From a virus: a stretch of DNA of 64,000 bases. Within the stretch, counting starts at the first letter, position 1, and every line of letters starts with the position of its first letter. Of the stretch, positions 5,698 through 32,636 are shown piece by piece. The position numbers were made by a program, and so were the translations under genes. Where the stretch lies: positions 23,524 through 87,523 of the IMG/VR virus record IMGVR_UViG_3300035663_000004. The stretch is one strand, 5' to 3'. The notes beneath the pieces were generated by a model. The model was not told the DNA's origin. It did not search any database and saw only the letters and a list, made by a program, of their open reading frames with translations.

Positions 5698-5700
5698 GTT

Positions 5701-5745
5701 TATAAAAATTTGCCCGCTCTCGGTTATGAGGGCGCGCGGGTGAAA
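5701..5745 (-). repeat. intergenic hairpin repeat, copy 1
   Basis: tataaaaatttgcccgctctcggttatgagggcgcgcgggtgaaa. Confidence 0.9.
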
Positions 5746-5752
5746 AGATAAA

Positions 5753-6196
5753 CTAAATTTCTCCGTTGTCGGCAAAGCTGTAAAAATCGCCGTCGGGGGC
5801 TAAAATAATATGATCTAACAGAATAATATCTAACAATTTCCCCGCGTCGGCTATCGCCTTAGTTAGTTTCCGGTCTGCATCGCTGGGCCGGAGTTCTCCG
5901 CTCGGGTGGTTGTGCGCAATAATTAGCGCGCTGGCAAGACCTTTGCAGGCGGCCCCAAAAAGTATTTTTAAATCTACAACTGTGCCGGCTATACCTCCGG
6001 CGGATAATTCTACAAGGCCTAAAACTTGGTTCCTTCTGTTTAGCAGGAGCGCTTTAAACTCCTCCTGCATTTCGATTTTTTTCGGGTTCCAGCTTTCGCG
6101 TAAAATTTCGTGCGCTGAATGCGACCCGGTAATTTTCGGCCGGTCTTTGGCTTTTACTTTGGCGCTATAAAAAAGGCTTATTTCCGCAACTTCCAT
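5753..6196 (-). CDS. radC: RadC-like JAB domain protein
   Basis: QEEFKALLLN, GGIAGTVVD, HNHPSG..PS.AD, LLDHII motifs. Confidence 0.92.
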   Translation of the reverse strand: MEVAEISLFYSAKVKAKDRPKITGSHSAHEILRESWNPKKIEMQEEFKALLLNRRNQVLGLVELSAGGIAGTVVDLKILFGAACKGLASALIIAHNHPSGELRPSDADRKLTKAIADAGKLLDIILLDHIILAPDGDFYSFADNGEI

Positions 6197-6200
6197 TTTT

Positions 6201-6245
6201 TATAAAAATTTGCCCGCTCTCGGTTATGAGGGCGGGCGGGTGAAA
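6201..6245 (-). repeat. intergenic hairpin repeat, copy 2
   Basis: tataaaaatttgcccgctctcggttatgagggcgggcgggtgaaa. Confidence 0.9.
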
Positions 6246-6248
6246 TAA

Positions 6249-6446
6249 TTATTTTTCTGCTGGTTTAAAAAGCGCGTGCGCTGCAAATTTGTTACCGATA
6301 AAGTCTTCTATATTAAAAAAGGCAATTTTTCCGGATTTGTTGCGCTTATCGTATTGTTTTACCTTCCATCCTTTGCGGGTTCTCTGTAAAAGTTCTACTT
6401 TTATGTCCGCGTAAAAAACGTGCTGCCAAACTTGCCCTACTTCCAT
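6249..6446 (-). CDS. hypothetical early protein
   Basis: 65-aa ORF bracketed by repeat copies 2 and 3. Confidence 0.65.
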   Translation of the reverse strand: MEVGQVWQHVFYADIKVELLQRTRKGWKVKQYDKRNKSGKIAFFNIEDFIGNKFAAHALFKPAEK

Positions 6447-6450
6447 GTTT

Positions 6451-6493
6451 TAAAATTTTGCCCGCTCTCGGTTATGAGGGCGGGCGGGTGAAA
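6451..6493 (-). repeat. intergenic hairpin repeat, copy 3
   Basis: taaaattttgcccgctctcggttatgagggcgggcgggtgaaa. Confidence 0.9.
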
Positions 6494-6496
6494 AAA

Positions 6497-6811
6497 TTAT
6501 TGTTGTTCTGGCTTCGGTTTGTCTGCTTGCGCGTGTTCGGGGTATCGCCTCAAAAACCCCAACCAAAAAGCCGGATAAACTTCTGCGAATTCGGGCGGGT
6601 TTAGTATTGCGGCGCGCTCAGAAAATATATATTCTTTTTGTGCTGTGCTGTGTTCTCCGGTTGCCAAATCGAAAACTTGGTAAAAGCCGGGGCGCTCTAT
6701 TGCGACTACCGCCAAAATATAGTATTGAAATCTTGCTACCGCTGTTTGGCCGGGTTCGCAATATACTTCTAAATTGTCGGCTATGATGGCAAAAAACGGG
6801 GGCTTTTTCAC
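6497..6811 (-). CDS. hypothetical early protein
   Basis: 104-aa ORF overlapping the stop of the upstream gene. Confidence 0.6.
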   Translation of the reverse strand: MKKPPFFAIIADNLEVYCEPGQTAVARFQYYILAVVAIERPGFYQVFDLATGEHSTAQKEYIFSERAAILNPPEFAEVYPAFWLGFLRRYPEHAQADKPKPEQQ

Positions 6812-8884: not shown

Positions 8885-8958
8885 AGCCTGCCTCGTCAGG
8901 TGCGGGGGGCAAGTTCCGCACTACGCCGCGGGGTCGCGGCGTTTCGGCTTATCGGGCT
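8885..8958 (-). ncRNA. type II hammerhead self-cleaving ribozyme
   Basis: Minus strand AGCCCGAUAA GCC GAAA CGCCGCG ACCC CGCGGCG UA^ GUGCGG AACUUGCCCC CCGCAC CUGACGA GGC AGGCU: complete CUGAnGA/GAAA core, GUA triplet, three closed stems. Confidence 0.93.
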
Positions 8959-10217: not shown

Positions 10218-10563
10218 TTGGAAGTTTTTGGCCTTTCAGGCGGTTGCGTGTTTTTTTTACCACGTTTCGCTGGAAATGTACGAATTTGACGCTCGGACGT
10301 TTGCCTGGATATTCATGTTGGTTTTCGATATGCTTTTATTTCCGCTCCCGCTGGTCGTTCTTTTGTCGTACATGGTTTTACAAGGTCAATCTATTTCGGG
10401 CTGGAGTCGTTTGGTTCACGCGCTTTATGCGGCCAACGTTTTGTCTGTACTATGGCGTTACCAATCTGAAGTATTAAACCCTTTGGTTGTATTTGCTATC
10501 ATTATTTTTTTAACAACTTATACAATTTTACTACGTTATGGGTTACTACCCTCAGTCAGATAA
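10210..10563 (+). CDS. multi-pass membrane protein
   Basis: About four hydrophobic segments; likely start MLNWKF. Confidence 0.6.
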   Translation: MLNWKFLAFQAVACFFYHVSLEMYEFDARTFAWIFMLVFDMLLFPLPLVVLLSYMVLQGQSISGWSRLVHALYAANVLSVLWRYQSEVLNPLVVFAIIIFLTTYTILLRYGLLPSVR

Positions 10564-12130
10564 GACAAAGTTTTGTCAAGGCGTTGAAATGATGCTCCGT
10601 GTTGTTGGTTCAACGATGGGGCCGGGCGGGAATCCGGTTCTTGAATGCGCCGGGCTGGATGCTTCGTATCGTCGCCTCATCCGGGACGGCAAAGAAACGC
10701 TGAAACTGATTCAGCCGAACGACCCGGAAATGTATGAGCCTATTGCCCGAATGAAAGATGTCGCGGAGGCTGTCGTCCGGCGTGCTGGCGACGCCACAAG
10801 TACGGCTACGATCATTTTGGGCAGCGCTTTTCTTCATATCGAAAAGGCTATTAAGGATCACCCGGAACTGAACCGGAGCCGTATTGCCTTTCACGTTCGG
10901 CAGGCTTCAAAGATTGCTTTGGCTGAACTTGAAAAGCGCAAATTGCAGGTTACTACAAGTCAGGACTTGGAGAACGTTGCAACGATTTGCGCGGCCGGGG
11001 ATCGTGAAATCGGGTCTGTTATCGGTTCGATGATTGAAAAGATTGGTGCGGACGGGACTGTCAAGGTTGAATACCACGACAAACCGGGTGTTGAGGCGGT
11101 AATTGTTCCGGGCTACAAGTTCCAGGGCGGTGTGTACGGCATTGACCAATACAATGGTCGGCGCGGCCTCGAATTGGACAACCCTCGTGTTGTCGTTGTC
11201 GGCGACGAAACGGGTTTGGTGGATTACAAGATGGATGTTGCCCCTATTTTGGCGGAAGCGCAAAAGTTTGGCGACAACCGTCCGCTGGTGGTATTCGTGT
11301 TGTCTGCCGAAGGGTCTGCCCGCGCTACGTTGCTTCGTCCTTTTGTAAATGGTGCGGATGGCAACACGTTCCGTGCGCCTGTTTGGCTGGTTCGCATTGG
11401 TGCTGGCGGTGTAAATACCTGCGCGGACATTAGTGCTGTTACCGGGGCAACCTTGTTTGGCAAGTTGAACGGCAAAATGATTTCCAAGATCAAGGATTCG
11501 GACTTTGGCGAAGCGGCTTCGATTGTTGCTACTACGGAATCCGTAACGATTGTTTCTTCGGACGATCAAAAGGCGTCTGTAAAGGATTATGTGAAGCGGT
11601 TGGAGGCTTCGATTGCCGAACATCCGGAGCTGGAGGAAAAAACGCGCGAACGCATTGCTGCGGTAACGGGGGGTGTTGGATTGATTCGCGTTCCGGCTTC
11701 TACGCAATCTTCCGGCTTCTACTATCAGGAGGTTGTTGACGACGCTTGGCGGGCTACGCGGGCGGCTATCAACGGCGGTGTTTTGCCTGGCGGCGGGGCT
11801 GCGTTATCAGGTGTTGCTGAAAATCTATTCTCGATTCATGCAACGGCTTGGTCGGAGGAGGCATTGGTGTACGATGCCATTGGTCATGCCTTTTACGGTG
11901 TATTGAAGACGGTGTGTAACAATGCCGGATTTGAAGTTGACTGGGGTAATATTGAATTTGGTTATGGTAAGACTTACGACATTGTTTCCGGTGAAATGAA
12001 TGTAAGCTCGCTTGAGTGCGGGGTAATTGATTCTGCTCCTGCGATTATGGCTGCTGTTGAATTGGCTTTGGCTGAACTTGCTTTGTGGGTCAATTCGGAG
12101 TATTTGTTGGTTCAAAAATTTGAGCAATGA
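10538..12130 (+). CDS. groL: phage-encoded group I chaperonin (divergent GroEL)
   Basis: STMGPGG, AGDATSTAT, VATICA, IG.DG.V.VE, ERIA...GGVG.I.V, ATRAAI.GGVLPGGG.AL, GVID; 530 aa. Confidence 0.92.
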   Translation: MGYYPQSDKTKFCQGVEMMLRVVGSTMGPGGNPVLECAGLDASYRRLIRDGKETLKLIQPNDPEMYEPIARMKDVAEAVVRRAGDATSTATIILGSAFLHIEKAIKDHPELNRSRIAFHVRQASKIALAELEKRKLQVTTSQDLENVATICAAGDREIGSVIGSMIEKIGADGTVKVEYHDKPGVEAVIVPGYKFQGGVYGIDQYNGRRGLELDNPRVVVVGDETGLVDYKMDVAPILAEAQKFGDNRPLVVFVLSAEGSARATLLRPFVNGADGNTFRAPVWLVRIGAGGVNTCADISAVTGATLFGKLNGKMISKIKDSDFGEAASIVATTESVTIVSSDDQKASVKDYVKRLEASIAEHPELEEKTRERIAAVTGGVGLIRVPASTQSSGFYYQEVVDDAWRATRAAINGGVLPGGGAALSGVAENLFSIHATAWSEEALVYDAIGHAFYGVLKTVCNNAGFEVDWGNIEFGYGKTYDIVSGEMNVSSLECGVIDSAPAIMAAVELALAELALWVNSEYLLVQKFEQ

Positions 12131-12441
12131 TAATAGTAACTGAAAAGGAGTTCAAGGCCATGCAGCCCGGACTAAACCGGGTATTGGTTATTCCGGACGT
12201 TGACGATCACGTTGACGCCGCTACGGGCATTCAGATTGCGCGTGACGAAAGCGAGCGCGAACAGGGTGTTATTGTGGCTTCTTCTGATGACGCCGTAAAG
12301 GCCGGGTATAAGGTAGGCGACCATATTGTGTATGCCAAGACAAGCATGGAGGTTTTTGAGTGCGAGGTTAATTTTGGTGACAGGGTTAATACGCTTCGGC
12401 TTCGTGTTGTTGACTGGCACGATATTGCTTTAAAATATTAG
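12127..12441 (+). CDS. groS: GroES-like co-chaperonin
   Basis: MQPGLNRVLV...TGIQI...QGVIVA...KVGDHIVY; ATGA-coupled to groL. Confidence 0.8.
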   Translation: MIIVTEKEFKAMQPGLNRVLVIPDVDDHVDAATGIQIARDESEREQGVIVASSDDAVKAGYKVGDHIVYAKTSMEVFECEVNFGDRVNTLRLRVVDWHDIALKY

Positions 12442-12445
12442 GCTT

Positions 12446-12739
12446 ATGACAAGATTGCAGCAAATTGGTGTTTTATTGATTGCCCTGCATATCGTGTTTA
12501 GTTTCACGGGTGTGTATCGGGCTGTTTCTGCTCCGAGTTACGATGTGTATGTTTACACGGGTAATCAGGGGTATTTGTTCAAGGACGTCCGGGTTGGTTT
12601 TTCCAACTTATGCGTTGTTCCGGACAGTTCCGGTGTTTTGGTTTTGTATTCCGGTGTTGCCGGGAAGGAAATATCTGTGTCGGGTGTAAAGAGTTGTGAT
12701 ATTGTTGCTGTACGAAAACCGCTTTTGTTCCCATGGTAG
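12446..12739 (+). CDS. N-terminally anchored hypothetical protein
   Basis: Hydrophobic N-terminus then beta-rich domain. Confidence 0.55.
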   Translation: MTRLQQIGVLLIALHIVFSFTGVYRAVSAPSYDVYVYTGNQGYLFKDVRVGFSNLCVVPDSSGVLVLYSGVAGKEISVSGVKSCDIVAVRKPLLFPW

Positions 12740-13434
12740 GAGATTTGTCTTTATATGTTGAAGTCGCTCCGGTTGGGGACGTTTCTTTTGACAAGGACAC
12801 GGGGGTGTTGGTCAATGATTTTGTGGATGTCCATATTCTGCGTTCCCTGCTTGTCCGTGTTGTTTCCATACCGGGGCGGCTTCCGTATTATCGCCATGAG
12901 GTAGAGGCTGTTGGTTCGATGTACAAAAAGAGCAAGTCTCGGTTTGTGTCGGAATGGTCTCAACGGATGACGCACCGTAGTTGCGAGTACGATGTTCCTG
13001 TTGAGGTGTCTGTTGGGGACTTGGTTTTAATGCAGCACTTACCGAATTTGGAGCAGCCGGAAGGTGTGCGGTATGTTAGGTACGATCAGCTGGTTGCCCG
13101 GCTTATGAAGTTATCCGGGGGGTTGTATCCTTTGAATGGCCACCTGTTGTTGCGAATGCCGGAAGACGAAAAGGGGTATATTGATCCTAAGTATAAGTGG
13201 CGAAATTCTTTGACGCGCGGTGAAGTGATTGCGCAAGGGTGTGCGGTAAGGGGGTACAAGCGTTGGCCTGGGTTTCGGGACAAAGTTTCTGAAAACTGGG
13301 TTGGCAGGACGGTTTATTTCCGGCCTTACAGCGCGGTTAGGATTGAGAATGATACGCACCGGACGATGGATTATTCTTCTCCGTGGCCATATTATCGAAT
13401 TAGCAAGCCGCAAATCTTATCATGGACGGACTAA
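12733..13434 (+). CDS. putative tandem GroES-like domain protein
   Basis: VVSIP..VEVSVGDLV..YVRYDQL and YPLNGHLLL..RGEVIAQG..VGRTVYF. Confidence 0.5.
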   Translation: MVGDLSLYVEVAPVGDVSFDKDTGVLVNDFVDVHILRSLLVRVVSIPGRLPYYRHEVEAVGSMYKKSKSRFVSEWSQRMTHRSCEYDVPVEVSVGDLVLMQHLPNLEQPEGVRYVRYDQLVARLMKLSGGLYPLNGHLLLRMPEDEKGYIDPKYKWRNSLTRGEVIAQGCAVRGYKRWPGFRDKVSENWVGRTVYFRPYSAVRIENDTHRTMDYSSPWPYYRISKPQILSWTD

Positions 13435-14063
13435 CGGGTGTACTGCAATTTGACACGACAAAGATGCGGATTGATCCGCAGGCAAGCGGGATGCTTTGGG
13501 AACGGTATCCGGAACTTGCTATGCGGAAAAACCTTTGCAGTATTGATACGTTTACATTTAGTCAGTTAGATGAGGAGCCTGTTTCTTTGCAGGATTTGAA
13601 TAAAACGATTATCTTTGTGGCGTATTTCTGCGATCCGGGCAGTCCGTTTTTTTCGGAGGTTGTTTTGGATCACCGCATGAAGGTTTGTTTGGATGCGGCT
13701 GGAATTACGGGTAGGTTGAGGACGCTGGTTTTGTCGCGGCATTGGTGGGTTTCGAGGGTTATGACAGAATATTTGAAATTAGTGCATAGCCATGAGTTTG
13801 AGTTGTGGTTGAGTTTGTCAATGGACTATGCGGAAAAAATGGCATATTTGCGGCTACCGCTTACATCTTTTGTTGACAATATGGAAAGCGCAATGAATGC
13901 CCGCGATAAGGTACAGAAAAGCGCTCCGGCGCTGAAGGATGAAATCAAAAAGTTAGAGACAAAGTTGTTCCCGAATGCCTATGTAGTGGATGCGGCTGTG
14001 GAAACAATAACAGCGGACGGTATAGGGGGTTGGGCGGAATACTTTGCGATGGATAAAGAATGA
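13422..14063 (+). CDS. hypothetical phage protein (helical C-terminus)
   Basis: FVAYFCDPGSPF motif; coiled-coil C-terminal half. Confidence 0.6.
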   Translation: MDGLTGVLQFDTTKMRIDPQASGMLWERYPELAMRKNLCSIDTFTFSQLDEEPVSLQDLNKTIIFVAYFCDPGSPFFSEVVLDHRMKVCLDAAGITGRLRTLVLSRHWWVSRVMTEYLKLVHSHEFELWLSLSMDYAEKMAYLRLPLTSFVDNMESAMNARDKVQKSAPALKDEIKKLETKLFPNAYVVDAAVETITADGIGGWAEYFAMDKE

Positions 14064-14089
14064 ATTTTTTAAAAATAAAATCAAGTAGT

Positions 14090-14533
14090 ATGAAATTCAA
14101 AGCACTTCTTTTCTTTTTTGCCTTTTTTTGTGCGGCTTTTGTCTCCGCGCAATCAAACGCATCAAAAGTCGTTCCGTGGGTTCAAAACGGCGACTCTCTT
14201 TCCGAAAACACGACTCTGGCCTATGAGCTTGCCATTGGCGGAACAATTGATAAAACAAAACTGTGGAACTACTCAGTTATTGTTTTTGCCGATTCGATTT
14301 CCGGCGCCAACGCCGGGACGGTTCAACTTCAAATTTCCAACGATCCCGCCGGAACGGCCTCGCCTATTTGGTCTAATTATGGCACGGCTGGAACTATTGA
14401 CGGAACCGCAGATCAGTTTTTTAACTACGAAGGGACGCTCTATGCTCGCCGCCTCCGTGTTTTAATTACCTCTCCTGCCGGAACCCGAAAAACTGCTATT
14501 CGCCTGCGTGGGCTTTTCCGACAAGTTGAATAA
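14090..14533 (+). CDS. secreted beta-rich protein (Sec signal peptide)
   Basis: MKFKALLFFFAFFCAAFVSA|Q. Confidence 0.75.
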   Translation: MKFKALLFFFAFFCAAFVSAQSNASKVVPWVQNGDSLSENTTLAYELAIGGTIDKTKLWNYSVIVFADSISGANAGTVQLQISNDPAGTASPIWSNYGTAGTIDGTADQFFNYEGTLYARRLRVLITSPAGTRKTAIRLRGLFRQVE

Positions 14534-14598
14534 AGAAGTTCTGCTGCATACGTTACCGGGCGCACGAAACGGAAGTTATCGTGCGCCCACCTTTAAGA

Positions 14599-15846
14599 AT
14601 GAAAAAGTTATCTTTATTCATATTATTCTTAGGCTTTTTCTTCCGGTTGTTTAGTCAAGGGACTGTTTTGACAACGGAGGGCGGGAAGCCTGTTATGTTA
14701 AACCTCGACGAAATGCGCACGGTGCGCCCTGTTACGTCGGGGTCTTTGATTTTATACGGATCGGCATTGCGCGCTATTTACGTTTCTGAAACGCCTGCGC
14801 AAATTGCAGGATCGGGGTGCGGTCAAATAGCGCTTGTAAATACGACCGACGTTGGCAGGAATACGATTGTTGGCATTGGCGTTCGCCATATTGACGCGAT
14901 TCGGAAAACATCCGACGGCAAAGCGAGTATTGCAATGAATGCGACCAATATTCCGGCTATGAAAAGCGTGGAGGATTTTGAAGCGATTGTCTTGCGGATT
15001 GCGGTGTGTTCTACCGGCCCTGGAGGCAACGGGTCTTCTGCGGGCGGAGATCGGGACAGTATTGAAGCGATGGTTTATGTTCCGACTACCGGGCGGCTTT
15101 CACTTATAAATGAATCCGGGGATAGCATTAGCGTAGTTATAAACAATCAAACGCTGTCTGTAACAGGAGATAGTTTAAGTATTAGTTTTGGCAATAAAGT
15201 AAAACTGCCGTCAAAAAGCCTTTTGGATTTGGCATCTGAATTGCCATATTATGTTAGCGATTCCGCGGCGCTGGCTGCTGGTCTTGCTCCAGGCGCGCCC
15301 TATTTGTTGGAGTGCAATAATGACTACAATTTACCTTCCGGGCTTTTCAAGGTTGTAAAAATTTGTGGGTATGACTGTTTTATTGTTTTACGTTTTTATA
15401 CAAACGATGAGGAGGCTGCGTCTTCCGGGGTTCCTGTTGGCAGGGAATATGTTTTGGATGATGACAACGCTTTGGGGGTTCTTTACGGCTTCATTAAAGT
15501 TCTTACAAATGATACGCTAAGCACGGGCGGATTGATTTGCAATGACACGCTGCCTGTTTATGCGTCTGACGCTTTGGCTATATCCGGCGGCCTGGCTGTT
15601 GGAGATCAATATGAAACTTCTGACGAAAATACCTATGGCGCTCCTGCTGGAATTGGTCGTATGGTTTCGTCTTCAAATACTTTGTCCGGCACAACTCAGG
15701 TTTGCTGTGACGAAAATGACAATTTGCCTTTTTTCAGTAACGATTCGGCTGCTATTTCCGCCGGATTGTTGGCCGGAGAAAAGTATTATCTTTTAAAATC
15801 GAATACATACGGATGGCCGTATGGAACAAAAAAGACTGTTCAATGA
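14599..15846 (+). CDS. secreted Cys-containing protein with four ~45-55-aa LPxY..D..A...GL..G..Y repeats
   Basis: MKKLSLFILFLGFFFRLFS|Q; repeats LPYYVSDSAALAAGLAPGAPY, LRFYTNDEEAASSGVPVGREY, LPVYASDALAISGGLAVGDQY, LPFFSNDSAAISAGLLAGEKY. Confidence 0.8.
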   Translation: MKKLSLFILFLGFFFRLFSQGTVLTTEGGKPVMLNLDEMRTVRPVTSGSLILYGSALRAIYVSETPAQIAGSGCGQIALVNTTDVGRNTIVGIGVRHIDAIRKTSDGKASIAMNATNIPAMKSVEDFEAIVLRIAVCSTGPGGNGSSAGGDRDSIEAMVYVPTTGRLSLINESGDSISVVINNQTLSVTGDSLSISFGNKVKLPSKSLLDLASELPYYVSDSAALAAGLAPGAPYLLECNNDYNLPSGLFKVVKICGYDCFIVLRFYTNDEEAASSGVPVGREYVLDDDNALGVLYGFIKVLTNDTLSTGGLICNDTLPVYASDALAISGGLAVGDQYETSDENTYGAPAGIGRMVSSSNTLSGTTQVCCDENDNLPFFSNDSAAISAGLLAGEKYYLLKSNTYGWPYGTKKTVQ

Positions 15847-18800
15847 ATCAAAAGTTTTTCCTTTCCGCCTTGTTTGTTTTTTCCTGCGGCATTGCGGGCG
15901 CGCAGGGTATCGTAAAGGGTTCCGGCATCATTTACAGCGATTCGATTCCTACGCATAGTGTAGATACGCTAAAAGAAGCGGAAATTGCTTTGGATGTCCG
16001 CACCGGGAATTACTATCAATGGAGCCGCGATTCGGTCAAGTGGGTGTTCTCCGGATTTAGGGTTGAGATCAAGCCCGGCGCCTGTTCTGCCCCAACGTAC
16101 ATTCCGGGGCGCAATCAGTCTTATTTCGTTTCCGACACTTGCGGAACATTTTATTTTTACAACGACACGCTTTGGAGGCAGGTTAAGGGGACGATTGCAG
16201 ACGGAGATAAAGGAGATATAACGGTATCCGGAAACGGACTAAACTGGAATATTGACGCCGGAACGATTGGCGCTACCGAACTTGCGTCCACGTCTGTTGC
16301 TCCGGGAACGTACTCAAATGCTACGGTTACCGTTGACGCCGACGGTCGTATAACAAATGCCGTAAACGGGCCTACCGGCGCGCGCGGCATATATGATGGA
16401 TCGGGAACTACCGGAGATTCTACGGTTGTTGCAAGTATCAAAAAGGAAATTCAGTTTAGGTCTGATTCTACGGATGCTTCATTTTTGGTGGACTTTACGC
16501 CGAATGATCTGTATGGAACCAACGCGGCTGTTCGCCCGGACTCTTTGAACTTCCTGTTTTTTAATTTAACGGGTTCATCGCGTCTTGTTATTAAGTCGGA
16601 CGGCATTTCCGCTATTACAAATACGGCAAACCCGTCTTTGCGGCTTACCGGGAACCCTGCGATATACAGCGCGGACTACTCTCCGTTTACGGATCGTGAA
16701 TTGCCGGACTACGCGGCGGTAAAAAAAATCGTTGTAGATTCTGTACAGGTTATAACTGTAACAAACGACACGGCGTACTTGAGTCGGTCTGGAGGAATTA
16801 TTCCATTGAAAAAATACGCTCAGGTTATTGATACGTTTTCAAGGCTTAATGATACGCTTTTTATATCTTTGAGCAATGACAACGCCCCTGCTGTTAGTGC
16901 CATTATTGACGGTAGCTCAACAAATGAAATTCAGGACTTATCGTTATCCGGTCAAACGCTTTCTTTGAGCAATGACCCAACAACGGTGACGCTTCCGGTT
17001 ATTGGAGTATCCGGCGGAACAGGAATTACAACAAGTTCGTCGGGCGGCACGGTAACGGTGACAAACGCCGCGCCGGATCAAACCGTCTCAATTAGCGGAT
17101 CGGGTATTACAACCGTTACGGGAACTTATCCGGTCTTTACCGTCACCAGCACGGAAAACGACGGATCAACTTCAAATGAAGGTAGCCTTACAGTAGGAGC
17201 CGGAATAGCAACTACAAGCGTAATATCCTCAAATACAAGCGGAAGCACAAACGTCACCATTGAAGCCGGGTCTAATATAACGTTAAGTGAATCAGGAAAT
17301 ACAATTACGATTGCATCTACGGCTGCCGGGGTAACGGATGGAGATAAAGACGATATTACGGTTTCCGGCTCCGGCGCAAACTGGAATATTCGAAATGACT
17401 CGGTAACAAGCCCTAAAATATTGGACGGAACTATTGCGCTGGCAGACATGGGCGCTAACAGCGTGGACTCAACAAAGGTGGGCGACAAAACGCTTAGTCT
17501 TAGTGATCTCAACGGGGCATGGGGGGTACAAAATGGATTCGTGTTGAAATGGAATGGGTCTAACTGGCGACCCGGGGCGGATAATACCGGGGCGGACGGG
17601 AACGGCATTTATGGCGGCGACGGAGATATACCAACCGGCACCGACGCGACATTGCCGCTCAATAGTTTTTTTAGGTTTGAATGGCCAAGCGGAAATACAG
17701 CCTTTATAATGGATGATTTTGGCGACACGGTTTATTTGGCCGACCCTTCGCTGGCTTCTTCTGTTTTGGTTTCCGCTTCAAAGGTCGGCCTTCGCTCAAC
17801 AGGGAATATCGAACTTTGGGGTGGCACGGGCGGCGCTAAACTTCGGATGTTAGAACCGACGGGATCGGGAACTAACTATACTGAAATTCAGGTCGGCGCA
17901 CAGTCAACGGACATAACTTATACTTTGCCAACAACAACCGGATCGAATGGTCAATACCTGCAATTTACGACTGGCGGCCAGTTGCAATGGTCAACGGTGG
18001 CGGCCGGGGTAACGGATGGAGATAAAGACGATATTACGGTTTCCGGCTCCGGCGCAAACTGGAACATACGCAACGATTCAGTAACAAGCCCAAAGATATT
18101 AGACGGGACGATTGCGCTGGTGGACATGGGCGCAAATAGTGTTGACTCAACAAAAATAGGCGACAAAACTGTAAGCCTTAGCGATCTTAATGGTGCGTGG
18201 GGCGCAAATGCAGGATCGGTGCTAAAATGGGACGGGAACAACTGGAGGCCGGGAACAGACAATAATACCGACGCGCAAACGCTATCTATTAATAGTACAA
18301 CGGTAGGCAGTAGCGAGCGGTTTGCTGTTTCGATTTCCAGCGGGAATACGGTTAATTTTGACGTACCACAAGGGACGGTTACCTCGGTTGGTATCACTCA
18401 ACCCGCTGCCGGAATAACAGTAACTAATAGCCCTGTAACAACAAGCGGAAATATAAGCCTTGCGCTTGCAAATGACCTTGGCGCGGTTGAAGGGCTTACC
18501 ACGAACGGTATTGCGGTGCGGACTGGTGACAACACATGGACAACAAGAAGTATAGCGGGCGCGGCGGACCCTTCATCCACCGCATTACCTACTATAAACG
18601 ATTTTAATGGCGTCAATGGTAACCCCACAATATCAATAAGCACATCAACAAGCACCACAAAACTAACGGCGCTTGTTGCTACAACCGCTAACATTACATT
18701 AAGCGGGACGCAAACGATTGATGGTGTTGCGCTAAGTGCAGACAACAGGGTGCTGGTTAAAAACCAAAATACAGCGAGCCAAAATGGCTTATATGTAGTT

Positions 18801-21800
18801 AGGACAACAGCGTGGGTCAGAGCAACAGACCTTGATGCAAATACCGAATTAAACAATGGAGTTTTGGTTTACATTAGTCGCGGGACAGCAAATGGAGGCA
18901 AATACTTTAGGCTCGCAACGTCAACAGAACCGCCATTAACCATAACCACAAGCGCTTTAAGCTTTAGCGAAACCCTTGGCGCTGGCGTGACGGACGGCGA
19001 CAAGGATGATATAACGGTATCAAATTCAGGCGCAAACTGGAATATTAGAAACGATAGTGTTACGACTCCAAAAATCCTAAACGGAACAATCCTGTTTGAA
19101 GACATTGGCCAAAACAGCGCATCGCCCGGACAGGTTATCAAGTGGAACGGGACAGCTTGGGCGGCGGCGGCCGACAATACAGGCGGATCGGGTTCGACTG
19201 ATTTAAGCTGGACGGGCGCTTCTTCGCCTTATACGCTTAATAGTTCTTCTGGCACGGATGTGGATTTCGCGCAAGGCGGCGGCATAACGCTTTCAACAAG
19301 CGGGGCAACCTTGACTATTGCGGCTACGGATCAGTCCACGACAAACGAATTACAGACACTTTCTACGGCTACAAATACGGTAACGCTAAGCAATAGCGGC
19401 GGCAGTTTTACGATTGCAGGCGGCGGCATAAACGCTGCTTCAACATCGGGTTCTACTATTACAATAACCGGAACAGAGGTGGATGGCTCAACGACAAATG
19501 AGATACAAGACCTTTCGCTTTCAGGCCAAACGCTTTCTTTGAGCAGCGACGCTACAACGGTGACGCTTCCGGTTATCGCGGTATCGGCTGGAACTGGAAT
19601 ATCCACAAGTTCTTCCGGCGGCACGGTGACGGTGACTAATTCGGCGCCCGACCAAACAGTAGGAATAACCGGAACCGGAATAACAGTAGTTTCTAATTAC
19701 CCAAACTTTACTCTTACGGCGGCCGATCAGTCAGCCTCAAACGAAGTGCTAACAATTTCCGATGGCACAAACACCGAGGCTCTGGGCGGTCAAACATTAA
19801 CAGTTGCAGGCGGTGGTATCAATACGGCATCCTATAATGCTACAACCAATACGCTTACGATTAGCGGCACCGAGAATGACGGATCAACCTCAAACGAAGG
19901 TATTTTAGGTGTAGGCGCTGGATCGGGAACAACCGCTACAATTACAACAAACACAACAACCGGGAATGCTGTAACTATCGCGGGCGGTGGTATTGTGGCT
20001 ATTACAAAAACAACAGGTACGAACGGCGGCACTATTACTATTACCGGCACCGAGGCGGATGGCTCAACTACGAATGAATTGCAAACGCTTTCCACGGCAA
20101 CAAATACCGTTACACTCAGTAACAGCGGCGGAAGTTTTACAATCTCTGGCGCTGGCATTAATACGGCATCTACTTCCGGCTCAACTATAACTATAACAGG
20201 AACCGAGAACGACGGCTCAACTACAAATGAACTTCAGACGTTAAGTACGGCGACAAACACCGTTACGCTTTCTAATTCAGGCGGCAGCTTCACAATAGCA
20301 GGTGGTGGTATCAATACAGTATCCACAAGCGGGTCAACTATTACTGTTACTGGAACTGAAAACGACGGCTCAACCACAAACGAACTGCAAACAATCGCCA
20401 ACACATCCGACGCAACCAGTCATACGGTGACGCTGTCTAATTCGGGCGGGTCGGTGCAGTTGATTCAAGGCGCTGGTATTGATCTTACAACAGGCGGGAA
20501 CAGCGGCGCGGGAACGGTTACGATTGCGGCCACAAATAGCGGCACGGTTACATCGGTAGGCATCACCGCACCGGCCGCCGGCATAACCGTAAGCAATAGC
20601 CCTATCACGTCGAGCGGGAATATTACACTTGCGCTTGCGGATGATTTAGCGGCGGTAGAGGGATTAACGAGTATAGGTGTTGCTGTTAGAACCAATAATG
20701 TGCCGCCAACATGGACAACAAGGTCTTTAACGGTAGCTAATCCTATTTCTATACAAAACGCTACGGGCGCAAGCGATAATCCGTTTATATATTTAAACAA
20801 TGGAGATTACGGCGATATAAGCATTGCAAACTCTAATTTGCCCCTCGGGCTTCGTGGCGATGTTTGGACGATTGATGCCAACGTAGTAGATTCAACAAAC
20901 GTCGGCAACAATACGTTGAGCGTTGACGATATTAACGGCGGGTGGGGCGTTCAAACCGGGTCTGTATTGAAATGGAACGGGACAAACTGGCGTCCGGGAA
21001 CAGACGAAACAGGCGGCGGCGGCGGCGGCGTGACCGACGGCGACAAAGGCGACATAACGGTATCCGCTTCCGGCGCTACGTGGACGATTGATAACACCGT
21101 TGTGAATTACGCAAAAATCCAAAACATATCCAACACAAACCGCATTTTAGGCCGGGCAACGGCCGGGGCTGGATCAGTCGAAGAGATAACAGTTGGTGGC
21201 GATTTGACCCAAAGCGGGTCAAATTTTACGGTTGCTAACGACGCCATCACTTTTGCGAAAATGCAGAACAGCGCAGCCGCCGGGCTTTCGGTAGTTGGGC
21301 GAAGCGCAAACAGCGCCGGGGATTTCGCCGAAATAAACGCGGGCACAGACGGCTTTGTGTTGCGCAGGTCGGGTACTACTTTGGGCTTTGGGACGGTGGC
21401 GACGGCGGGGATTGCGGACGCGGCGGTGACTTACGCAAAAATCCAAAACGTAGCAGGTAACAGCGTGTTGGCTCGTACTGCCAGCGGATCGGGCACCCTT
21501 AGCGAGGTGGCGCTTTCGGCTTCTAATTTGTTAGGTCGCGGTAGTACGGGTAATGTGAGCGCGATTACGTTGGGTAGTAATTTGTCTATGTCGGGCACAG
21601 CCCTTAACACGACCGGGCATCCAACAATCACGGGAACGCCAACGACAAACGCGATACCGAAATGGACATCAAGTTCGGCGCTGGGTTCGACGATTGTCCA
21701 AGAGTCAATTTCTGGCGCGGACACGATCATTCAGATCGTTGGCCGGGACGCTTTGCGGTTGCCGCTGGGGACTACGGCGGAGCGGCCGGGAACGCCTACT

Positions 21801-22700
21801 ATTGGTATGACGCGCTATAATACTACTAATGGGGCGTTTGAGTATTATGACGCGGACGCGTGGGAAACGCCGCTGATTTCGGCTACGGGTACGGGACTTG
21901 GTACGGCGGGAAATGTGTTTTTTGCGGATGCGAATGGGCGGGCAAGCGGATCAACAAACCTTTTTTGGGACGCGACTAATAGCAGGCTGGGTGTTGGGAC
22001 AAGTTCGCCGCAAAGTCAGTTTCACTTTGTAACGAACGTTTCAGGCGACCCATCAAACTTCGTTGTAGAGCGATACACAGCAAACGCAAACATTATCCAG
22101 CGCCGCGCGAACGGAACTATTGCGTCGCCAACAGCCTGCCTTAATGGAGATGTATTGGGCGCAAACGCTTTTCGTGGCCATAACGGGACGGCGTTCGCAT
22201 CCCTTTCATCTGTAGTCATGCTTGCTGTTGCTACGGAAAACTGGACAACCTCTGCAAATGGCGCGAGGTTTACAATTAACACGATTCCTAACGGGGCAAC
22301 TTCAGGAAGTGCACGATTTACAATTAACCACAACGGCAACGTAAATATTGGTAGCGGCACAAGTCCTGAAAACAGGTTGCAAATTGAAGGCACCCTCGGT
22401 CGCAACGCGCCCGTATCAACTGACGCCACAGCATACGTCATGACAAATGACGTATCTACCACGTGGCTAATTTGTGACGAAACAGCAACAACAACGATCA
22501 CCCTTCCGGCGGCATCAAGTTGGAGCGGCCGCGAACTCACAATCAAAAATATCACCGCTTTTGCGGTGAACTCAAACGCGTCTAACGTTTTGCCTATTGG
22601 CAGCAATACGGCGGGAACGGCGATACTTTCAGCAACGGCTGGATCGTGGGCGCTGCTGGTATCAAATGGCACGAACTGGGTTATAATGCAACGCGGATAA
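15843..22700 (+). CDS. giant Thr/Ser/Gly-rich fibre/adhesin-like protein with Sec signal peptide (probably an A/B hybrid across the junction)
   Basis: MNQKFFLSALFVFSCGIAGA|Q; repeated DGDK.DITVS and TNE(I/L)Q modules; tail-fibre-like ATTANITLSGTQTIDGV..RVLVKNQ..SQNGLY domain; C-terminal TLPAAS..GRELTIKN..LVSNGTNW. Confidence 0.85.
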   Translation: MNQKFFLSALFVFSCGIAGAQGIVKGSGIIYSDSIPTHSVDTLKEAEIALDVRTGNYYQWSRDSVKWVFSGFRVEIKPGACSAPTYIPGRNQSYFVSDTCGTFYFYNDTLWRQVKGTIADGDKGDITVSGNGLNWNIDAGTIGATELASTSVAPGTYSNATVTVDADGRITNAVNGPTGARGIYDGSGTTGDSTVVASIKKEIQFRSDSTDASFLVDFTPNDLYGTNAAVRPDSLNFLFFNLTGSSRLVIKSDGISAITNTANPSLRLTGNPAIYSADYSPFTDRELPDYAAVKKIVVDSVQVITVTNDTAYLSRSGGIIPLKKYAQVIDTFSRLNDTLFISLSNDNAPAVSAIIDGSSTNEIQDLSLSGQTLSLSNDPTTVTLPVIGVSGGTGITTSSSGGTVTVTNAAPDQTVSISGSGITTVTGTYPVFTVTSTENDGSTSNEGSLTVGAGIATTSVISSNTSGSTNVTIEAGSNITLSESGNTITIASTAAGVTDGDKDDITVSGSGANWNIRNDSVTSPKILDGTIALADMGANSVDSTKVGDKTLSLSDLNGAWGVQNGFVLKWNGSNWRPGADNTGADGNGIYGGDGDIPTGTDATLPLNSFFRFEWPSGNTAFIMDDFGDTVYLADPSLASSVLVSASKVGLRSTGNIELWGGTGGAKLRMLEPTGSGTNYTEIQVGAQSTDITYTLPTTTGSNGQYLQFTTGGQLQWSTVAAGVTDGDKDDITVSGSGANWNIRNDSVTSPKILDGTIALVDMGANSVDSTKIGDKTVSLSDLNGAWGANAGSVLKWDGNNWRPGTDNNTDAQTLSINSTTVGSSERFAVSISSGNTVNFDVPQGTVTSVGITQPAAGITVTNSPVTTSGNISLALANDLGAVEGLTTNGIAVRTGDNTWTTRSIAGAADPSSTALPTINDFNGVNGNPTISISTSTSTTKLTALVATTANITLSGTQTIDGVALSADNRVLVKNQNTASQNGLYVVRTTAWVRATDLDANTELNNGVLVYISRGTANGGKYFRLATSTEPPLTITTSALSFSETLGAGVTDGDKDDITVSNSGANWNIRNDSVTTPKILNGTILFEDIGQNSASPGQVIKWNGTAWAAAADNTGGSGSTDLSWTGASSPYTLNSSSGTDVDFAQGGGITLSTSGATLTIAATDQSTTNELQTLSTATNTVTLSNSGGSFTIAGGGINAASTSGSTITITGTEVDGSTTNEIQDLSLSGQTLSLSSDATTVTLPVIAVSAGTGISTSSSGGTVTVTNSAPDQTVGITGTGITVVSNYPNFTLTAADQSASNEVLTISDGTNTEALGGQTLTVAGGGINTASYNATTNTLTISGTENDGSTSNEGILGVGAGSGTTATITTNTTTGNAVTIAGGGIVAITKTTGTNGGTITITGTEADGSTTNELQTLSTATNTVTLSNSGGSFTISGAGINTASTSGSTITITGTENDGSTTNELQTLSTATNTVTLSNSGGSFTIAGGGINTVSTSGSTITVTGTENDGSTTNELQTIANTSDATSHTVTLSNSGGSVQLIQGAGIDLTTGGNSGAGTVTIAATNSGTVTSVGITAPAAGITVSNSPITSSGNITLALADDLAAVEGLTSIGVAVRTNNVPPTWTTRSLTVANPISIQNATGASDNPFIYLNNGDYGDISIANSNLPLGLRGDVWTIDANVVDSTNVGNNTLSVDDINGGWGVQTGSVLKWNGTNWRPGTDETGGGGGGVTDGDKGDITVSASGATWTIDNTVVNYAKIQNISNTNRILGRATAGAGSVEEITVGGDLTQSGSNFTVANDAITFAKMQNSAAAGLSVVGRSANSAGDFAEINAGTDGFVLRRSGTTLGFGTVATAGIADAAVTYAKIQNVAGNSVLARTASGSGTLSEVALSASNLLGRGSTGNVSAITLGSNLSMSGTALNTTGHPTITGTPTTNAIPKWTSSSALGSTIVQESISGADTIIQIVGRDALRLPLGTTAERPGTPTIGMTRYNTTNGAFEYYDADAWETPLISATGTGLGTAGNVFFADANGRASGSTNLFWDATNSRLGVGTSSPQSQFHFVTNVSGDPSNFVVERYTANANIIQRRANGTIASPTACLNGDVLGANAFRGHNGTAFASLSSVVMLAVATENWTTSANGARFTINTIPNGATSGSARFTINHNGNVNIGSGTSPENRLQIEGTLGRNAPVSTDATAYVMTNDVSTTWLICDETATTTITLPAASSWSGRELTIKNITAFAVNSNASNVLPIGSNTAGTAILSATAGSWALLVSNGTNWVIMQRG
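21021..21537 (+). repeat. direct repeat, left copy
   Basis: 517 bp matching 63484-64000 with 11 mismatches; identical from 21411 onward. Confidence 0.97.
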
Positions 22701-22715
22701 AACAAACATTAAAAT

Positions 22716-23348
22716 ATGAAACACATCCTTTTCCTTCTCCTTTTCCCGGCTGCCTTGTTGGCGCAAGATCAACCGGACACAACCGCCGTCACCTATGAAA
22801 ACCGGGGCGGCATCTTTTACACCGTCACGAAAACAACGTTTCAATCCGGGCGGATCGTGACCGAAGAAACGCCGCTTGGCGCGGACACAGCAGGCGTGGT
22901 AAACGCCATTATCGGGCCGGTATTCACAGCCACAACCGACGCCGCAAACAAGGCTATACAGGTGGCACGGCTTAACCGGGTGCGGCAACAGGTGGTGGCG
23001 GCCAACGCGGCGCTCAACGGGCTTGTTGGACAGGATTATTTTAGCGTGGTACAGAACGCCGTTGGCCAGGAATTTTTGCCGGATTCATTACAAAGTATCC
23101 CGGCTACTATGCGCGTTGACGGCGGCTCTCCCATCACCGCATCAATCCGGCGAAACGCCGCCGGGCGCTTGGTATTTAGGCAGGGAACGCAGAACTTTAC
23201 GCTGGATATCGTTAGCCGTAATTGGATACGCTTGCGGCGCTATCAGGGTACGGAAACGCTGGCGACAGACGCCGTGATTGTTGATCTGTTCAAAGAAACT
23301 GAAGGGCGCTGGATTTCTCTTGATCTTAAATATAATCTGCGAAAATAA
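22716..23348 (+). CDS. secreted hypothetical protein (Sec signal peptide)
   Basis: MKHILFLLLFPAALLA|Q. Confidence 0.75.
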   Translation: MKHILFLLLFPAALLAQDQPDTTAVTYENRGGIFYTVTKTTFQSGRIVTEETPLGADTAGVVNAIIGPVFTATTDAANKAIQVARLNRVRQQVVAANAALNGLVGQDYFSVVQNAVGQEFLPDSLQSIPATMRVDGGSPITASIRRNAAGRLVFRQGTQNFTLDIVSRNWIRLRRYQGTETLATDAVIVDLFKETEGRWISLDLKYNLRK

Positions 23349-24466
23349 TGGCGAACAAAAAAATTTCCGAACTTGAACCCGGCCAACAGGTAGTTGCGGA
23401 CACGCAGTTACCCGGTTCACTGGGCGCGCAGACGTTCAAGTACACGGCTGACCAACTGGCTGCCTACGTTCAATCTAAGGACACGGCGGGCGATATTGAC
23501 GGGCCGCTGACCGGTGCCGAAGTAGTCGGCATTCGCGGGCGCTCGGTATCTGCGACGGAGCCAACGAACGGGCAGATATTGCAATGGAACGGTACGGCAT
23601 GGATCCCGGTCGCTGCGCCTGCCGCTGCGTTCACGCCGGTGGTATACGAATATAGCAACCCCGTTACCAACGAACTGCTTACAATCCCGACCGGCGCAAC
23701 GCTCATAGATATTATTTGCATCGGCGCTGGCGCTGGCGGCGGTTCCGGGCGCCGGGGCGCTGCGGGGACGGTTCGCTGTGGCGGAGGCGGTGGCGGTTCC
23801 GGTACTTTTTCTACCATCACGGTACGCGCGGGCGATATTGACGGGCCGCTAAAAGTTACGGTCGGCGCTGGAGGGAGCGGTGGTACAGCCCGTACAGTGG
23901 ACAGTACAGACGGCGCGAACGGTAGCCCTGGCACGTCTTCGCAGGTTACGTCGAACACGAACGCGATATTGTGTTTTGCGCTCCGAGGCGGAGCGGGAAT
24001 AGGGGGTACCACATCAAGTGGCCCTGGCGGTGCTGCTGGTACGTCTGGCGACTTTCAAGGCAGCGCCGGCAATTCGGCGTCAACAAGCGGCGGAGCGGGG
24101 CAGGACGCAGGCGCTGCTTCGTCGAGAGGCCCGTCGGGTGGCGGCGCTGGTGGCGGTATTACATCCGGCAACGCCGCATCGGACGGTAGCAGCGGGCAGT
24201 CGGTGGTTCACGGGCAAATCTTGGTCGTGAACCGGGGCACGGTCGCAAACCCAAACGCGTCCGGGGGGTATTCGCCGTTACAGGGGCAAACAACTGGCGG
24301 CGGCGGCGGCGGCGGTGGAGCGTCCAGCCTAACCGGCGCTGGAGGACTTGGCGGTAACGGCGTACGCGGCGGCGGTGGCGGTGGTGGTGGTGCGAGTGTG
24401 AACGGAAACAACTCCGGCGCGGGCGGCAACGGCGGCAATGGTTACGTGCGTATAATCTTTTTGTAA
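23348..24466 (+). CDS. glycine-rich virion fibre/structural protein
   Basis: MANKKISEL N-terminus; GQILQWNGTAW; IGAGAGGGSG...GGNGGNGYVRI Gly-rich domain. Confidence 0.8.
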   Translation: MANKKISELEPGQQVVADTQLPGSLGAQTFKYTADQLAAYVQSKDTAGDIDGPLTGAEVVGIRGRSVSATEPTNGQILQWNGTAWIPVAAPAAAFTPVVYEYSNPVTNELLTIPTGATLIDIICIGAGAGGGSGRRGAAGTVRCGGGGGGSGTFSTITVRAGDIDGPLKVTVGAGGSGGTARTVDSTDGANGSPGTSSQVTSNTNAILCFALRGGAGIGGTTSSGPGGAAGTSGDFQGSAGNSASTSGGAGQDAGAASSRGPSGGGAGGGITSGNAASDGSSGQSVVHGQILVVNRGTVANPNASGGYSPLQGQTTGGGGGGGGASSLTGAGGLGGNGVRGGGGGGGGASVNGNNSGAGGNGGNGYVRIIFL

Positions 24467-31024: not shown

Positions 31025-32005
31025 ATGAAAGTACGGGAAATAGCCTATAAGATAACCTACAATAATAAGGACGTAACGGCCGACCTGACGCCGTACGTTA
31101 CGGGGGTGACGTACACAGATAAGACGGAAGGCGAATCAGACACGATCGAAATACAACTTGAAGATACGGACGGGCTATGGCGCGGGGCATGGTATCCGAC
31201 GAAGGGCGATACATTGCAGGTGGAGGCCGGATATACCGACCTGCTGCTGCCGTGCGGCGTTTTTCAGATAGACGAAATAGAAATAAGCGGGCCGCCGGAC
31301 GTGGTATCAATCCGGGGCATGGCAACGGGCACGCAGCCCGCAATCCGCACGCGCAACAATTCGGCGCACGAAAACAAGACACTGCGGGAAATTGCCAATA
31401 CCATTGGAGGCGCTCACGGGCTGACTGTGCAGGGTGAAATCGAAGAAATCCGAATCAATCGCGCAACACAATATCGGGAAACCGACCTTGCGTTCCTTAA
31501 GCGCATATCGTGGAAGTACGGGCATGTTTTCAGCGTTCGCGGGGACTTGCTGGTGTTCCAGACAATCTATGGACTGGAAGGCGCTGACGCGGTGTCTGAA
31601 GTTGACCGCACCGACCTGATACGGTACAGCCTGACGGATAAGACCGCCGAAACGTATAAGGCTGCGGAGGTGAAGTACCACGATCCGGTACAGAAAAAAG
31701 TTATCCGCCACACGGAGACGGCGACGGCTGCCGATACGTCCGGCGATACCCTGGTACTGCAATGCAAGGCGGAAACGCCAACGCAGGCGCAGGCGCAGGC
31801 AAGGGCGGCGCTACACAGGGCGAACACGCGGCGGCAATCCGGCAGCCTGTCCCTGCCTGGTGATCCGCTGCTGGTGGCTGGCAGCAATTTCACGCTCACG
31901 GGGCTGGGCGTATTATCCGGCATGTATCATATCGAAGAAAGCAGGCACTCGCTATCACGCGCAAGCGGATATACGACCGACCTGACGGTGAAAAAGGTCG
32001 GCTGA
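31025..32005 (+). CDS. late control D / baseplate hub protein
   Basis: YTDKTEGESD; G.FQIDEIE.SGPP; ETDL.FL.R; G.Y.I...RH. Confidence 0.92.
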   Translation: MKVREIAYKITYNNKDVTADLTPYVTGVTYTDKTEGESDTIEIQLEDTDGLWRGAWYPTKGDTLQVEAGYTDLLLPCGVFQIDEIEISGPPDVVSIRGMATGTQPAIRTRNNSAHENKTLREIANTIGGAHGLTVQGEIEEIRINRATQYRETDLAFLKRISWKYGHVFSVRGDLLVFQTIYGLEGADAVSEVDRTDLIRYSLTDKTAETYKAAEVKYHDPVQKKVIRHTETATAADTSGDTLVLQCKAETPTQAQAQARAALHRANTRRQSGSLSLPGDPLLVAGSNFTLTGLGVLSGMYHIEESRHSLSRASGYTTDLTVKKVG

Positions 32006-32097
32006 CCATTTTGGCATCGAAAAATGGTCGTATTTTTAACGTTCATTGTACATTTTTGACGTTCGTTATATTTTTTGAAAAAAAGTTACAAAAAAAC

Positions 32098-32128
32098 TTG
32101 CGCGTATTTGCATAACGCAGTATCTTTG
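32098..32128 (+). promoter_or_regulatory. moron promoter with TTRYGC-N6-GCRYAA operator
   Basis: TTGCGCGTATTTGCATAAC followed by TATCTTTG. Confidence 0.7.
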
Positions 32129-32175
32129 TATCATCAAACAAACAAAATATTTTTTACTCACTAATTTTTTGAGAC

Positions 32176-32436: not shown

Positions 32437-32441
32437 TTTTC

Positions 32442-32616: not shown

Positions 32617-32636
32617 GTCACCAACACACACACAAT

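Follow-up and report, generated by a model that had tools for sequence, protein, structure and literature searches.

Tailed-phage particles assemble in the cytoplasm, and the tail, neck and side fibres known to us carry no export signal and attach to particles in that compartment. Late, spontaneous fibre attachment is established, for example for the long tail fibres of T4; we know of no phage for which fibre attachment across compartments has been established. Described here is a group of fibre-like genes whose products begin with predicted Sec export signals, found in a 64,000-nucleotide stretch of viral DNA (the window), which is the final 64 kb (positions 23,524 to 87,523) of the 87,523-bp IMG/VR record IMGVR_UViG_3300035663_000004. 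The record is a chimera, composed of a fragment of one phage (phage A, podovirus-like) and the complete genome of another (phage B, a myovirus). The original prediction, made from the letters of the window, had proposed an operon of Sec-exported fibre-like proteins at 14090-23348, made in the periplasm and added to particles at lysis, or displayed on the infected cell or its vesicles. Comparison with homologous sequences suggests that in these two unrelated lake-water Bacteroidota phages the periplasm, and not the cytoplasm, is the probable site of maturation of the fibres and their small partner proteins.

Several described systems come close to this arrangement. The mosaic adhesive trimer (MAT) fibres of Bdellovibrio bacteriovorus are chimeric fibres that resemble phage tail fibres and carry a signal peptide, but they are bacterial, serve a predator, and in many cases end in an S74 chaperone-protease domain (PMC10769870). 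No Pfam hit to S74 was obtained in the four leader-bearing proteins of phage A (P0001-P0004) or in ten other family members, and fold searches with a model of the fibre N-terminal domain (N-domain) returned no MAT chain, no direct comparison with the MAT N-domain having been made. Phages of Porphyromonas gingivalis encode proteins in which predicted signal peptidase I cleavage exposes Gln (the Q-rule), but these are small, are not fibres in structural slots, and have no described docking partner (PMC10367356). The target proteins of phage diversity-generating retroelements are stated to be without signal peptides (PMC6199706). Conventional fibres, such as those of phage B itself (36479-37351) and of its relative L062, occupy similar gene positions, are likewise built with mosaic repeat shafts and a tail-fibre-type domain, and have a small partner gene downstream, but bear no leader, whereas here the leader is on the fibre and the attachment peptide on a separate adaptor. 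No description of Sec-exported tailed-phage fibres was found in the literature searched, to which most subscription journals were out of reach. The present analysis adds family-wide statistics on leaders and cysteine pairs, a synteny between a small module and the fibre N-domain with a traceable origin of the adaptor, a near-identical exported cassette in a podovirus-like phage and a myovirus, and proof that the public record is chimeric.

The leader-bearing genes (lengths in amino acids, aa), together with the leaderless adaptor gene that precedes the phage B fibre, are as follows:

14090-14533, plus strand: P0001 (phage A), 147-aa predicted exported protein; leader 14090-14149, predicted cleavage VSA/Q.
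14599-15846, plus strand: P0002 (phage A), 415-aa hub, predicted exported; leader 14599-14655 (LFS/Q), an N-terminal domain, four modules of ~35 aa.
15843-22700, plus strand: P0003 (phage A), giant fibre gene, 2285 aa from 15843; leader 15843-15902 (AGA/Q).
22716-23348, plus strand: P0004, 210-aa partner, predicted exported; leader 22716-22763 (LLA/Q).
62924-63139, plus strand: P0200 (phage B), 71-aa leaderless adaptor; one module (63020-63136) as its C-terminal half; stop overlaps the fibre start (ATGA).
63136-64000, plus strand: P0005 (phage B), 5' part of the fibre gene; leader 63136-63195 (AFS/Q), N-domain; cut by the contig end and resuming at 21015.

As had been read from the translations, the four phage A proteins and P0005 begin with a basic-hydrophobic leader that ends in small-x-small and is followed by Gln. 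The leaders are MKFKALLFFFAFFCAAFVSA (14090), MKKLSLFILFLGFFFRLFS (14599), MNQKFFLSALFVFSCGIAGA (15843), MKHILFLLLFPAALLA (22716) and MINKYLFSLFIFIFPAAAFS (63136), after each of which the predicted mature protein starts with Q; all five consist of Met, one to four Lys/Arg residues, a hydrophobic run of 10-15 residues, small-x-small and Gln. A filter for this n/h/c layout (K/R ahead of a 10-residue window with a mean Kyte-Doolittle hydropathy ≥ 2.2 and no D/E) was passed by 5 of 99 greedily called genes in the 87.5-kb record. Four of them are the adjacent genes at 14090, 14599, 15843 and 22716, a clustering that is therefore far from chance; the fifth is a 97-aa open reading frame (ORF) at 12446. 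The start codons chosen in the original prediction are the conserved ones (called/chosen starts in phage A: 14060/14090-14533, 14581/14599-15846 and 15813/15843-22700). The P0001 homologue of L007, the nearest relative of phage A, starts at the MKFKALL position, and both fibre starts, at 15843 (on the stop of P0002) and 63136, overlap the upstream stop as ATGA.

The export signal was judged by conservation across homologues. With residues 1-125 of P0005 as the query, HMMER retrieved 481 clusters at E ≤ 1e-3, the match always lying at residues ~2-120 of the hit, and leader statistics were compiled for the best 150 representatives of these clusters plus the two window proteins. All 152 sequences have a leader with a hydrophobic core and Gln at +1 (146 aligned and 6 shifted by the aligner). 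Among the aligned 146, the -1 residue is A, G or S in 139, and 137 have K/R within residues 1-8; the leaders vary freely in sequence and have a median length of 18. The partners behave in the same way, with leader and Gln in 43 of 45 P0004 homologues (the remaining two being truncated), in about 15 of 17 P0002 homologues (the rest being N-truncated or having an extended called start) and in 7/7 P0001 homologues. Because the layout, the small residues at -3/-1 and the +1 Gln are fixed while the leader sequence drifts, the leaders are taken to act as real Bacteroidota Sec/signal peptidase I signals, and export is well supported by this pattern. The invariance of Gln also bears out its earlier recognition as the Bacteroidota signal peptidase I pattern: the Q-rule is specific to Sec/signal peptidase I substrates of Bacteroidota, in which a periplasm-facing cyclase turns the +1 Gln into pyroglutamate (PMC10653852). 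Metagenome-assembled genomes (MAGs) labelled Lewinellaceae and Saprospiraceae contain fibre and P0004 relatives, in contigs that may themselves be phage.

The fibre N-domain spans ~100 residues and is well conserved, with invariant W63, P79 and P83. The original prediction had pointed to paired cysteines suited to disulfide formation, and of the 152 sequences, 111 have Cys76 and Cys95 together, 41 have neither, and none has only one of them. This all-or-none pattern is the one expected of a structural disulfide and therefore argues for folding in an oxidising compartment; the pair thus points to a disulfide in the N-domain. The structure model of the domain is confident (pLDDT 87.6) and mainly beta. 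In BFVD, its best matches (E 3e-3, TM 0.3-0.4) were to the N-terminal parts of fibre, collagen and C1q proteins of uncultured phages, and a wide VIA-align search gave a best Z of 3.2 and nothing significant. No match was obtained by tblastn of the N-domain and of the family member P0069 against 50,697 GenBank phages.

The identification of the exported proteins as phage fibre proteins is supported by their position and homology. The giant protein consists of the two-Cys N-domain (to ~16200), shuffled repeat modules, a tail-fibre-type domain and a C-terminal domain. The third of these had been proposed earlier and is upheld by residues ~959-1073, whose matches (E to 2e-16) are tail or tail-fibre proteins from phages of Pelagibacter, Ralstonia and Gordonia. 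Relatives were located via P0004 and via the fibre N-domain. In the siphovirus-like ones (L004-L006, L073, L077-L082), the signal-bearing fibre, 1659-1856 aa long in complete copies, comes after the genes for the major tail protein, the chaperones, the tape measure, a virion protein of 819 aa and a 196/245-aa tail-terminator-like protein, in that order; behind it are a P0004-like exported protein, a small hydrophobic ORF that may encode a holin, and the endolysin. No other long fibre gene was found in the post-tape-measure stretch of these siphovirus-type relatives. In L085, a terminator in the normal head-to-tail slot is followed by the fibre and then by the major tail protein, while in phage B and L083 the fibre gene has the head-completion genes on one side and the sheath gene on the other. 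The phage B set is made up of the 71-aa adaptor at 62924, a fibre of ~675 aa and P0004. The location that the original prediction had given for the exported genes, between head-decoration and tail genes, is accordingly correct for phage B only; the four-gene row belongs to phage A, and in L007 it lies upstream of the terminase gene. P0004 was always found after fibres with a C-terminal domain of the giant type, and a 96% homologue of it is present on a 45-kb contig. A second contig of a Lewinellaceae MAG has several predicted exported fibres in succession: at L074:3616-6316 it encodes a fibre-like protein of 713 aa and a partner of 185 aa, both with leaders, and immediately downstream come a collagen-like module protein and an N-domain fibre.

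The second recurrent element is a module of ~35 residues (full pattern Y..D..A...G...G..Y...G.D.IP.G). Of 14 distinct contexts, 11-12 have this module at the end of the gene that immediately precedes the signal-bearing fibre. Wherever checked, the stop of this gene overlaps the fibre start as ATGA, an arrangement of translational coupling. The carriers of the module are the terminator-like protein (one or two modules), which in L085 occupies the head-to-tail slot described above, the 819-aa protein (one), each of these two ending in the module in the siphovirus-like relatives, a collagen-like 92-aa protein, the hub P0002 (four) and P0200. In P0002, where the pattern is Y..D..A...G...G..Y, canonical copies lie at 15241-15348, 15550-15657 and 15724-15831, and a degenerate one begins at ~residue 266. 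In its 17 homologues, a regular expression detects 1-4 modules (2-4 in every homologue but one), and many of these proteins have a Cys-rich N-terminal domain containing 12-15 cysteines. Phage B has its closest relative in a circular 45.9-kb contig (L009/L062), in which a 1056-aa fibre without a leader takes up the fibre slot; residues 433-769 of this fibre match, at 52%, the last 357 residues of the giant protein. Homology to the N-terminal end of this leaderless fibre (E 6e-10) is seen in P0200 residues 1-26, which also resemble the N-terminal end of the neighbouring 167-aa protein. The attachment peptide is therefore fused to the fibre in the relative and placed on a separate adaptor in phage B, whose fibre begins with leader and N-domain in place of the peptide. 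We infer that the module binds the fibre N-domain. Complex prediction for the 71-aa adaptor and the mature fibre N-domain gave a score of 0.00, which is counted neither for nor against binding. A 334-aa relative of P0002 (P0213) combines leader, fibre N-domain and two modules in one protein, an arrangement that could permit fibre chains or branches if the module binds the N-domain. The leaderless L062 fibre (L062:4183-7353) contains about seven tandem repeats of the form YGNGLFVAV...TSPDG..WT, propeller-like, between attachment peptide and shaft, and ends in a domain of the Gly_rich_2 type.

A cultured phage of a Bacteroidota host, Cellulophaga phage phi18:3 (Pachyviridae, NC_021794), offers the best available sign that leader-bearing proteins may reach particles. 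Its consecutive gp085, gp086 and gp087 have leaders ending ..GYS/Q, ..VSA/Q and ..LNA/Q, and are annotated in the record as virion, structural or tail proteins from tandem mass spectrometry (MS/MS). Nine other MS-verified structural proteins of phi18:3 have no leader. Phage A is a distant relative of phi18:3: the terminase of L007 is 27% identical to that of phi18:3 over 650 residues (E 8e-52), and the phi18:3 layout of fibre cluster, chaperonin (GroES) and lysis genes, terminase and portal is like that of phage A, but the module/N-domain pair was not seen in phi18:3. BLASTP detected no similarity of gp085-087 to window proteins, and no paper on their leaders was found. Over ~690 residues, the MS-verified virion protein gp123 of phi18:3 is matched (E 1e-40) by the 3142-aa protein that phage A encodes on the minus strand at record bases 10986-20414.

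The best reading of these data, to which we give an even chance, is that the exported proteins are virion fibres that dock onto particles after envelope breakdown. Fibres and partners would be exported by Sec, cut by signal peptidase I before the invariant Gln, and would fold, trimerise and become oxidised in the periplasm. Particles built in the cytoplasm would bear the module on a virion protein, be it the tail-terminator-like protein, the 819-aa tail protein or a small adaptor, and the fibre N-domain would dock on it when lysis removes the inner-membrane barrier and mixes the compartments. We infer the export itself, the presence of these proteins in the virions of phages A and B, and the docking step at lysis. 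A wider claim, more tentative than the reading just given, is that Bacteroidota phages build part of the virion outside the cytoplasm, with Sec export, pyroglutamate formation, oxidation and perhaps glycosylation, and that a portable docking pair would allow the cassette to move among podo-, sipho- and myoviruses, as it has here between phages A and B. With regard to glycosylation, the Bacteroidota O-glycosylation motif D-[ST]-[AILVMT] occurs 12 times in the three small proteins combined, against 2.9 expected from shuffles (0/5000 shuffles reach 12), and 7 times against 1.9 expected in P0002.

If this reading is correct, a second compartment and a post-lysis step are added to the textbook, all-cytoplasmic assembly of tailed phages, and the most exposed part of the virion gains disulfides, a pyroglutamate cap and possibly host glycosylation. 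Bacteroidota phage fibres might then need periplasmic expression to fold, and both host-range engineering and virion proteomics would have to allow for the leader. The module/N-domain pair, if it binds, would be a small natural connector joining fibres to different morphotypes.

Several points weigh against docking of exported fibres at lysis. Its weak point is the docking step itself: P0200, the 196/245-aa terminator-like proteins and the 819-aa protein carry the module without a leader, so that an exported fibre would meet them only after lysis, and no precedent for a fibre meeting its virion partner only after lysis was found. Foldseek comparison of the N-domain model with the Protein Data Bank gave no match at E ≤ 0.001, and hence no fold link to a known attachment domain. 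The leader-bearing giant of L007 is followed by a leaderless 144-aa protein, which also follows the leaderless fibre of L062; the leader status of a fibre and its neighbour is therefore not always matched. The phage A fibre leader holds VFSC, a weak lipobox-like string, upstream of AGA/Q. In the fibres themselves, the O-glycosylation motif shows no significant excess (18 against 15.4 expected in the giant, 2 against 2.4 in the phage B fibre).

An unlikely alternative is that the proteins are exported but do not belong to the virion, and function within or on the cell envelope during infection or lysogeny, where they might mask or remove receptors, block superinfection, keep progeny off debris or serve as a cell or vesicle adhesin. 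All members carry export signals, as this would require, and phage B already has, as the original prediction had stated, a conventional tail fibre with its chaperone (36479-37795); the hub P0002 of phage A is itself leader-bearing, so that the whole set could stay outside the cytoplasm. The Q-rule proteins of Porphyromonas phages have likewise been suggested to modify the host surface (PMC10367356). Such a role sits poorly with the place of the fibre in the siphovirus-type relatives, the receptor-binding-protein slot after the tape measure, with module partners of virion type (tail-terminator-like and 819-aa structural proteins), and with the leader-bearing gp085-087 that the phi18:3 record places in virions. 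Display on the surface or on vesicles found no positive support, neither lipobox nor type IX secretion system (T9SS) C-terminal domain nor membrane anchor having been found. A conserved lipobox Cys is missing from the leader in the fibre family alignment, and the earlier remark that a T9SS C-terminal domain is not evident agrees with the lack of any such Pfam hit at E ≤ 0.01 in P0001-P0004 and ten other family members.

It is quite improbable that the hydrophobic N-terminus does not serve export at all, the fibres folding and joining particles in the cytoplasm and the leader acting as a membrane tether in assembly, in membrane insertion at infection, or as the substrate of another protease. 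The cytoplasmic assembly of tailed phages, the leaderless module carriers and the leaderless fibre in the same slot of the close relative L062 would all fit this explanation. Signal-like N-termini on capsid proteins have also been explained by prohead protease cleavage (PMC10367356). The fixation of n/h/c layout, -3/-1 residues and +1 Gln across 152 drifting sequences is, however, the mark of a generic targeting signal that host peptidase and cyclase recognise, and not that of a structural element; the all-or-none Cys pair and the Cys-rich N-domains of P0002 relatives fit an oxidising compartment, and the small partner proteins bear the same leader.

The composition of the record determines how the four-gene row is to be read. 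IMG/VR lists the record as linear and 89% complete, an estimate that is not meaningful because the record is chimeric. Its left 44.5 kb encode replication and nucleotide-metabolism proteins, the 3142-aa protein and an endolysin, and contain no terminase, portal or capsid gene. Phage A has a GC content of ~47%; along the window, GC is 0.44-0.50 up to ~20000 and then steps to 0.53-0.60. The last 526 bases of the contig (63475-64000) are a direct repeat of 21012-21537 at a spacing of 42,463 bases, with 13 mismatches that all fall within the first 399 bases; the identical final 127 bases fit a repeat end left by an assembler using 127-base words. The relative L007 is 91.5% identical to the record and colinear with it from the GroEL gene through the first kilobase of the giant gene. 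Its similarity ends at window position 21091, beyond which it has the 144-aa gene, the large terminase and the portal, all three missing from the record.

Read depth and contig joins were examined in three public lake-water metagenome runs (X1, X2 and X3). In X1, depth is 19-21x over 12000-20543, 78-84x over 21078-23213 and ~61x on the phage B backbone past 23748, so that the cassette depth equals the sum of the two phages, and the cassette is therefore present in both and the four-gene row no mere artefact. In X2, the phage A part is at 7.5x and the phage B backbone at 18.7x, and the cassette bins range over 20-40x, only the first (26.9x) equalling the sum. In both X1 and X2, a contig of phage B depth over 21048-22926 has ten B-type variants and carries at its 5' side the sequence of window 63448-63477 joined to 21015 onward. 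Phage B is therefore a 42,463-bp circle, with a fibre gene made up of 63136...63477 and 21015...22700. In X3, the phage B backbone is at 0x, and contigs of phage A depth (52-57x) overlap across 12000-23334 at 96-99.8% identity, with a divergent stretch at 21943-22389, and continue past 23334 into sequence found nowhere in the record. Phage A alone therefore encodes, one after another, P0001, P0002, the giant fibre and a P0004-like protein. The closure of phage B rests on these depths and joins and not on the 649-aa protein P0050, which was considered as independent proof of the rebuilt fibre and set aside, the common part being the N-domain only. A weakly supported X3 contig, one side of which spans just 21 bases, joins ~21030 to ~24415 through 28 other letters and may represent a variant fibre running straight into the glycine-rich C-terminal end, as in L007.

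The part common to both phages and the first gene beyond it are:

21012-23334, plus strand: cassette common to phages A and B; 3' 1.7 kb of the fibre gene and P0004, with the A-to-B assembly crossing inside.
23348-24466, plus strand: Gly-rich minor tail protein of phage B; no leader; Pfam Gly_rich_2 (1.9e-10), PHROG minor tail protein.

The cassette, which includes the giant fibre gene from 21012 on, comprises ~2.3 kb that are 97.5-100% identical between phages A and B, and its GC (0.53-0.55) is closer to that of phage B. The stretch 14090-23348 as printed hence crosses the A/B assembly join, and the idea of a single four-gene operon of phage B has to be abandoned, the record being chimeric and the row that of phage A. 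The record is also a warning on public virus entries, in that an 87.5-kb 'genome' is two phages joined via a common fibre cassette. A single crossover in the cassette could also have produced a natural A-B cointegrate, whose contig would look no different, but this is unlikely and ranked below an assembly join, given the unequal depths of the two parts and the presence of A without B in X3. That the four-gene row is itself an assembly artefact of unrelated genes, as a chimeric record with its end repeat (21012-21537, 127 identical bases), GC step, ~threefold depth difference and missing counterparts of the post-giant terminase and portal of L007 might suggest, is very improbable, since phage A contigs in X3 cover 12000-23334 including the P0004 region with the B backbone at 0x, the X1 cassette depth is that of A plus B, and independent relatives keep the pairs of module protein with fibre and fibre with P0004.

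None of P0001-P0004 is recognised by Pfam or PHROGs. In the ESM Atlas, P0001 has only unnamed viral clusters as look-alikes and P0004 gave no usable hit; the single-sequence fold of P0004 was poor (pLDDT 42) and was not used. In phage B, the gene at 23348-24466 is the first past the cassette, and its domain is the same as that at the C-terminal end of the L007 giant fibre. Further on are the sheath gene at 25157 and, after it, the genes for tape measure, baseplate and tail fibre. Terminase and portal are encoded at 54450-60159 together with the capsid gene (58198-60159), in which protease and major head protein are fused (PHROG 4523, E 2.8e-190).

In phage A, the region directly upstream of the exported cassette (10538-13434) encodes a GroEL-like chaperonin at 10538 (Pfam Cpn60_TCP1, 2.7e-21; PHROG chaperonin groEL, 9.5e-56) and, after it, small ORFs; the GroES genes of phi18:3 lie in a region similar to this site. 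Neither Rfam at the gathering threshold nor ARAGORN detected an RNA gene or tRNA in window 1-64000, and candidate hammerhead-like (8885-8958) and tRNA-like (~32004-32864) elements were not confirmed at the Rfam gathering threshold. Three G+C-rich elements of ~67 nt, 76-100% identical to one another, lie between small minus-strand genes at window positions 5700-6514.

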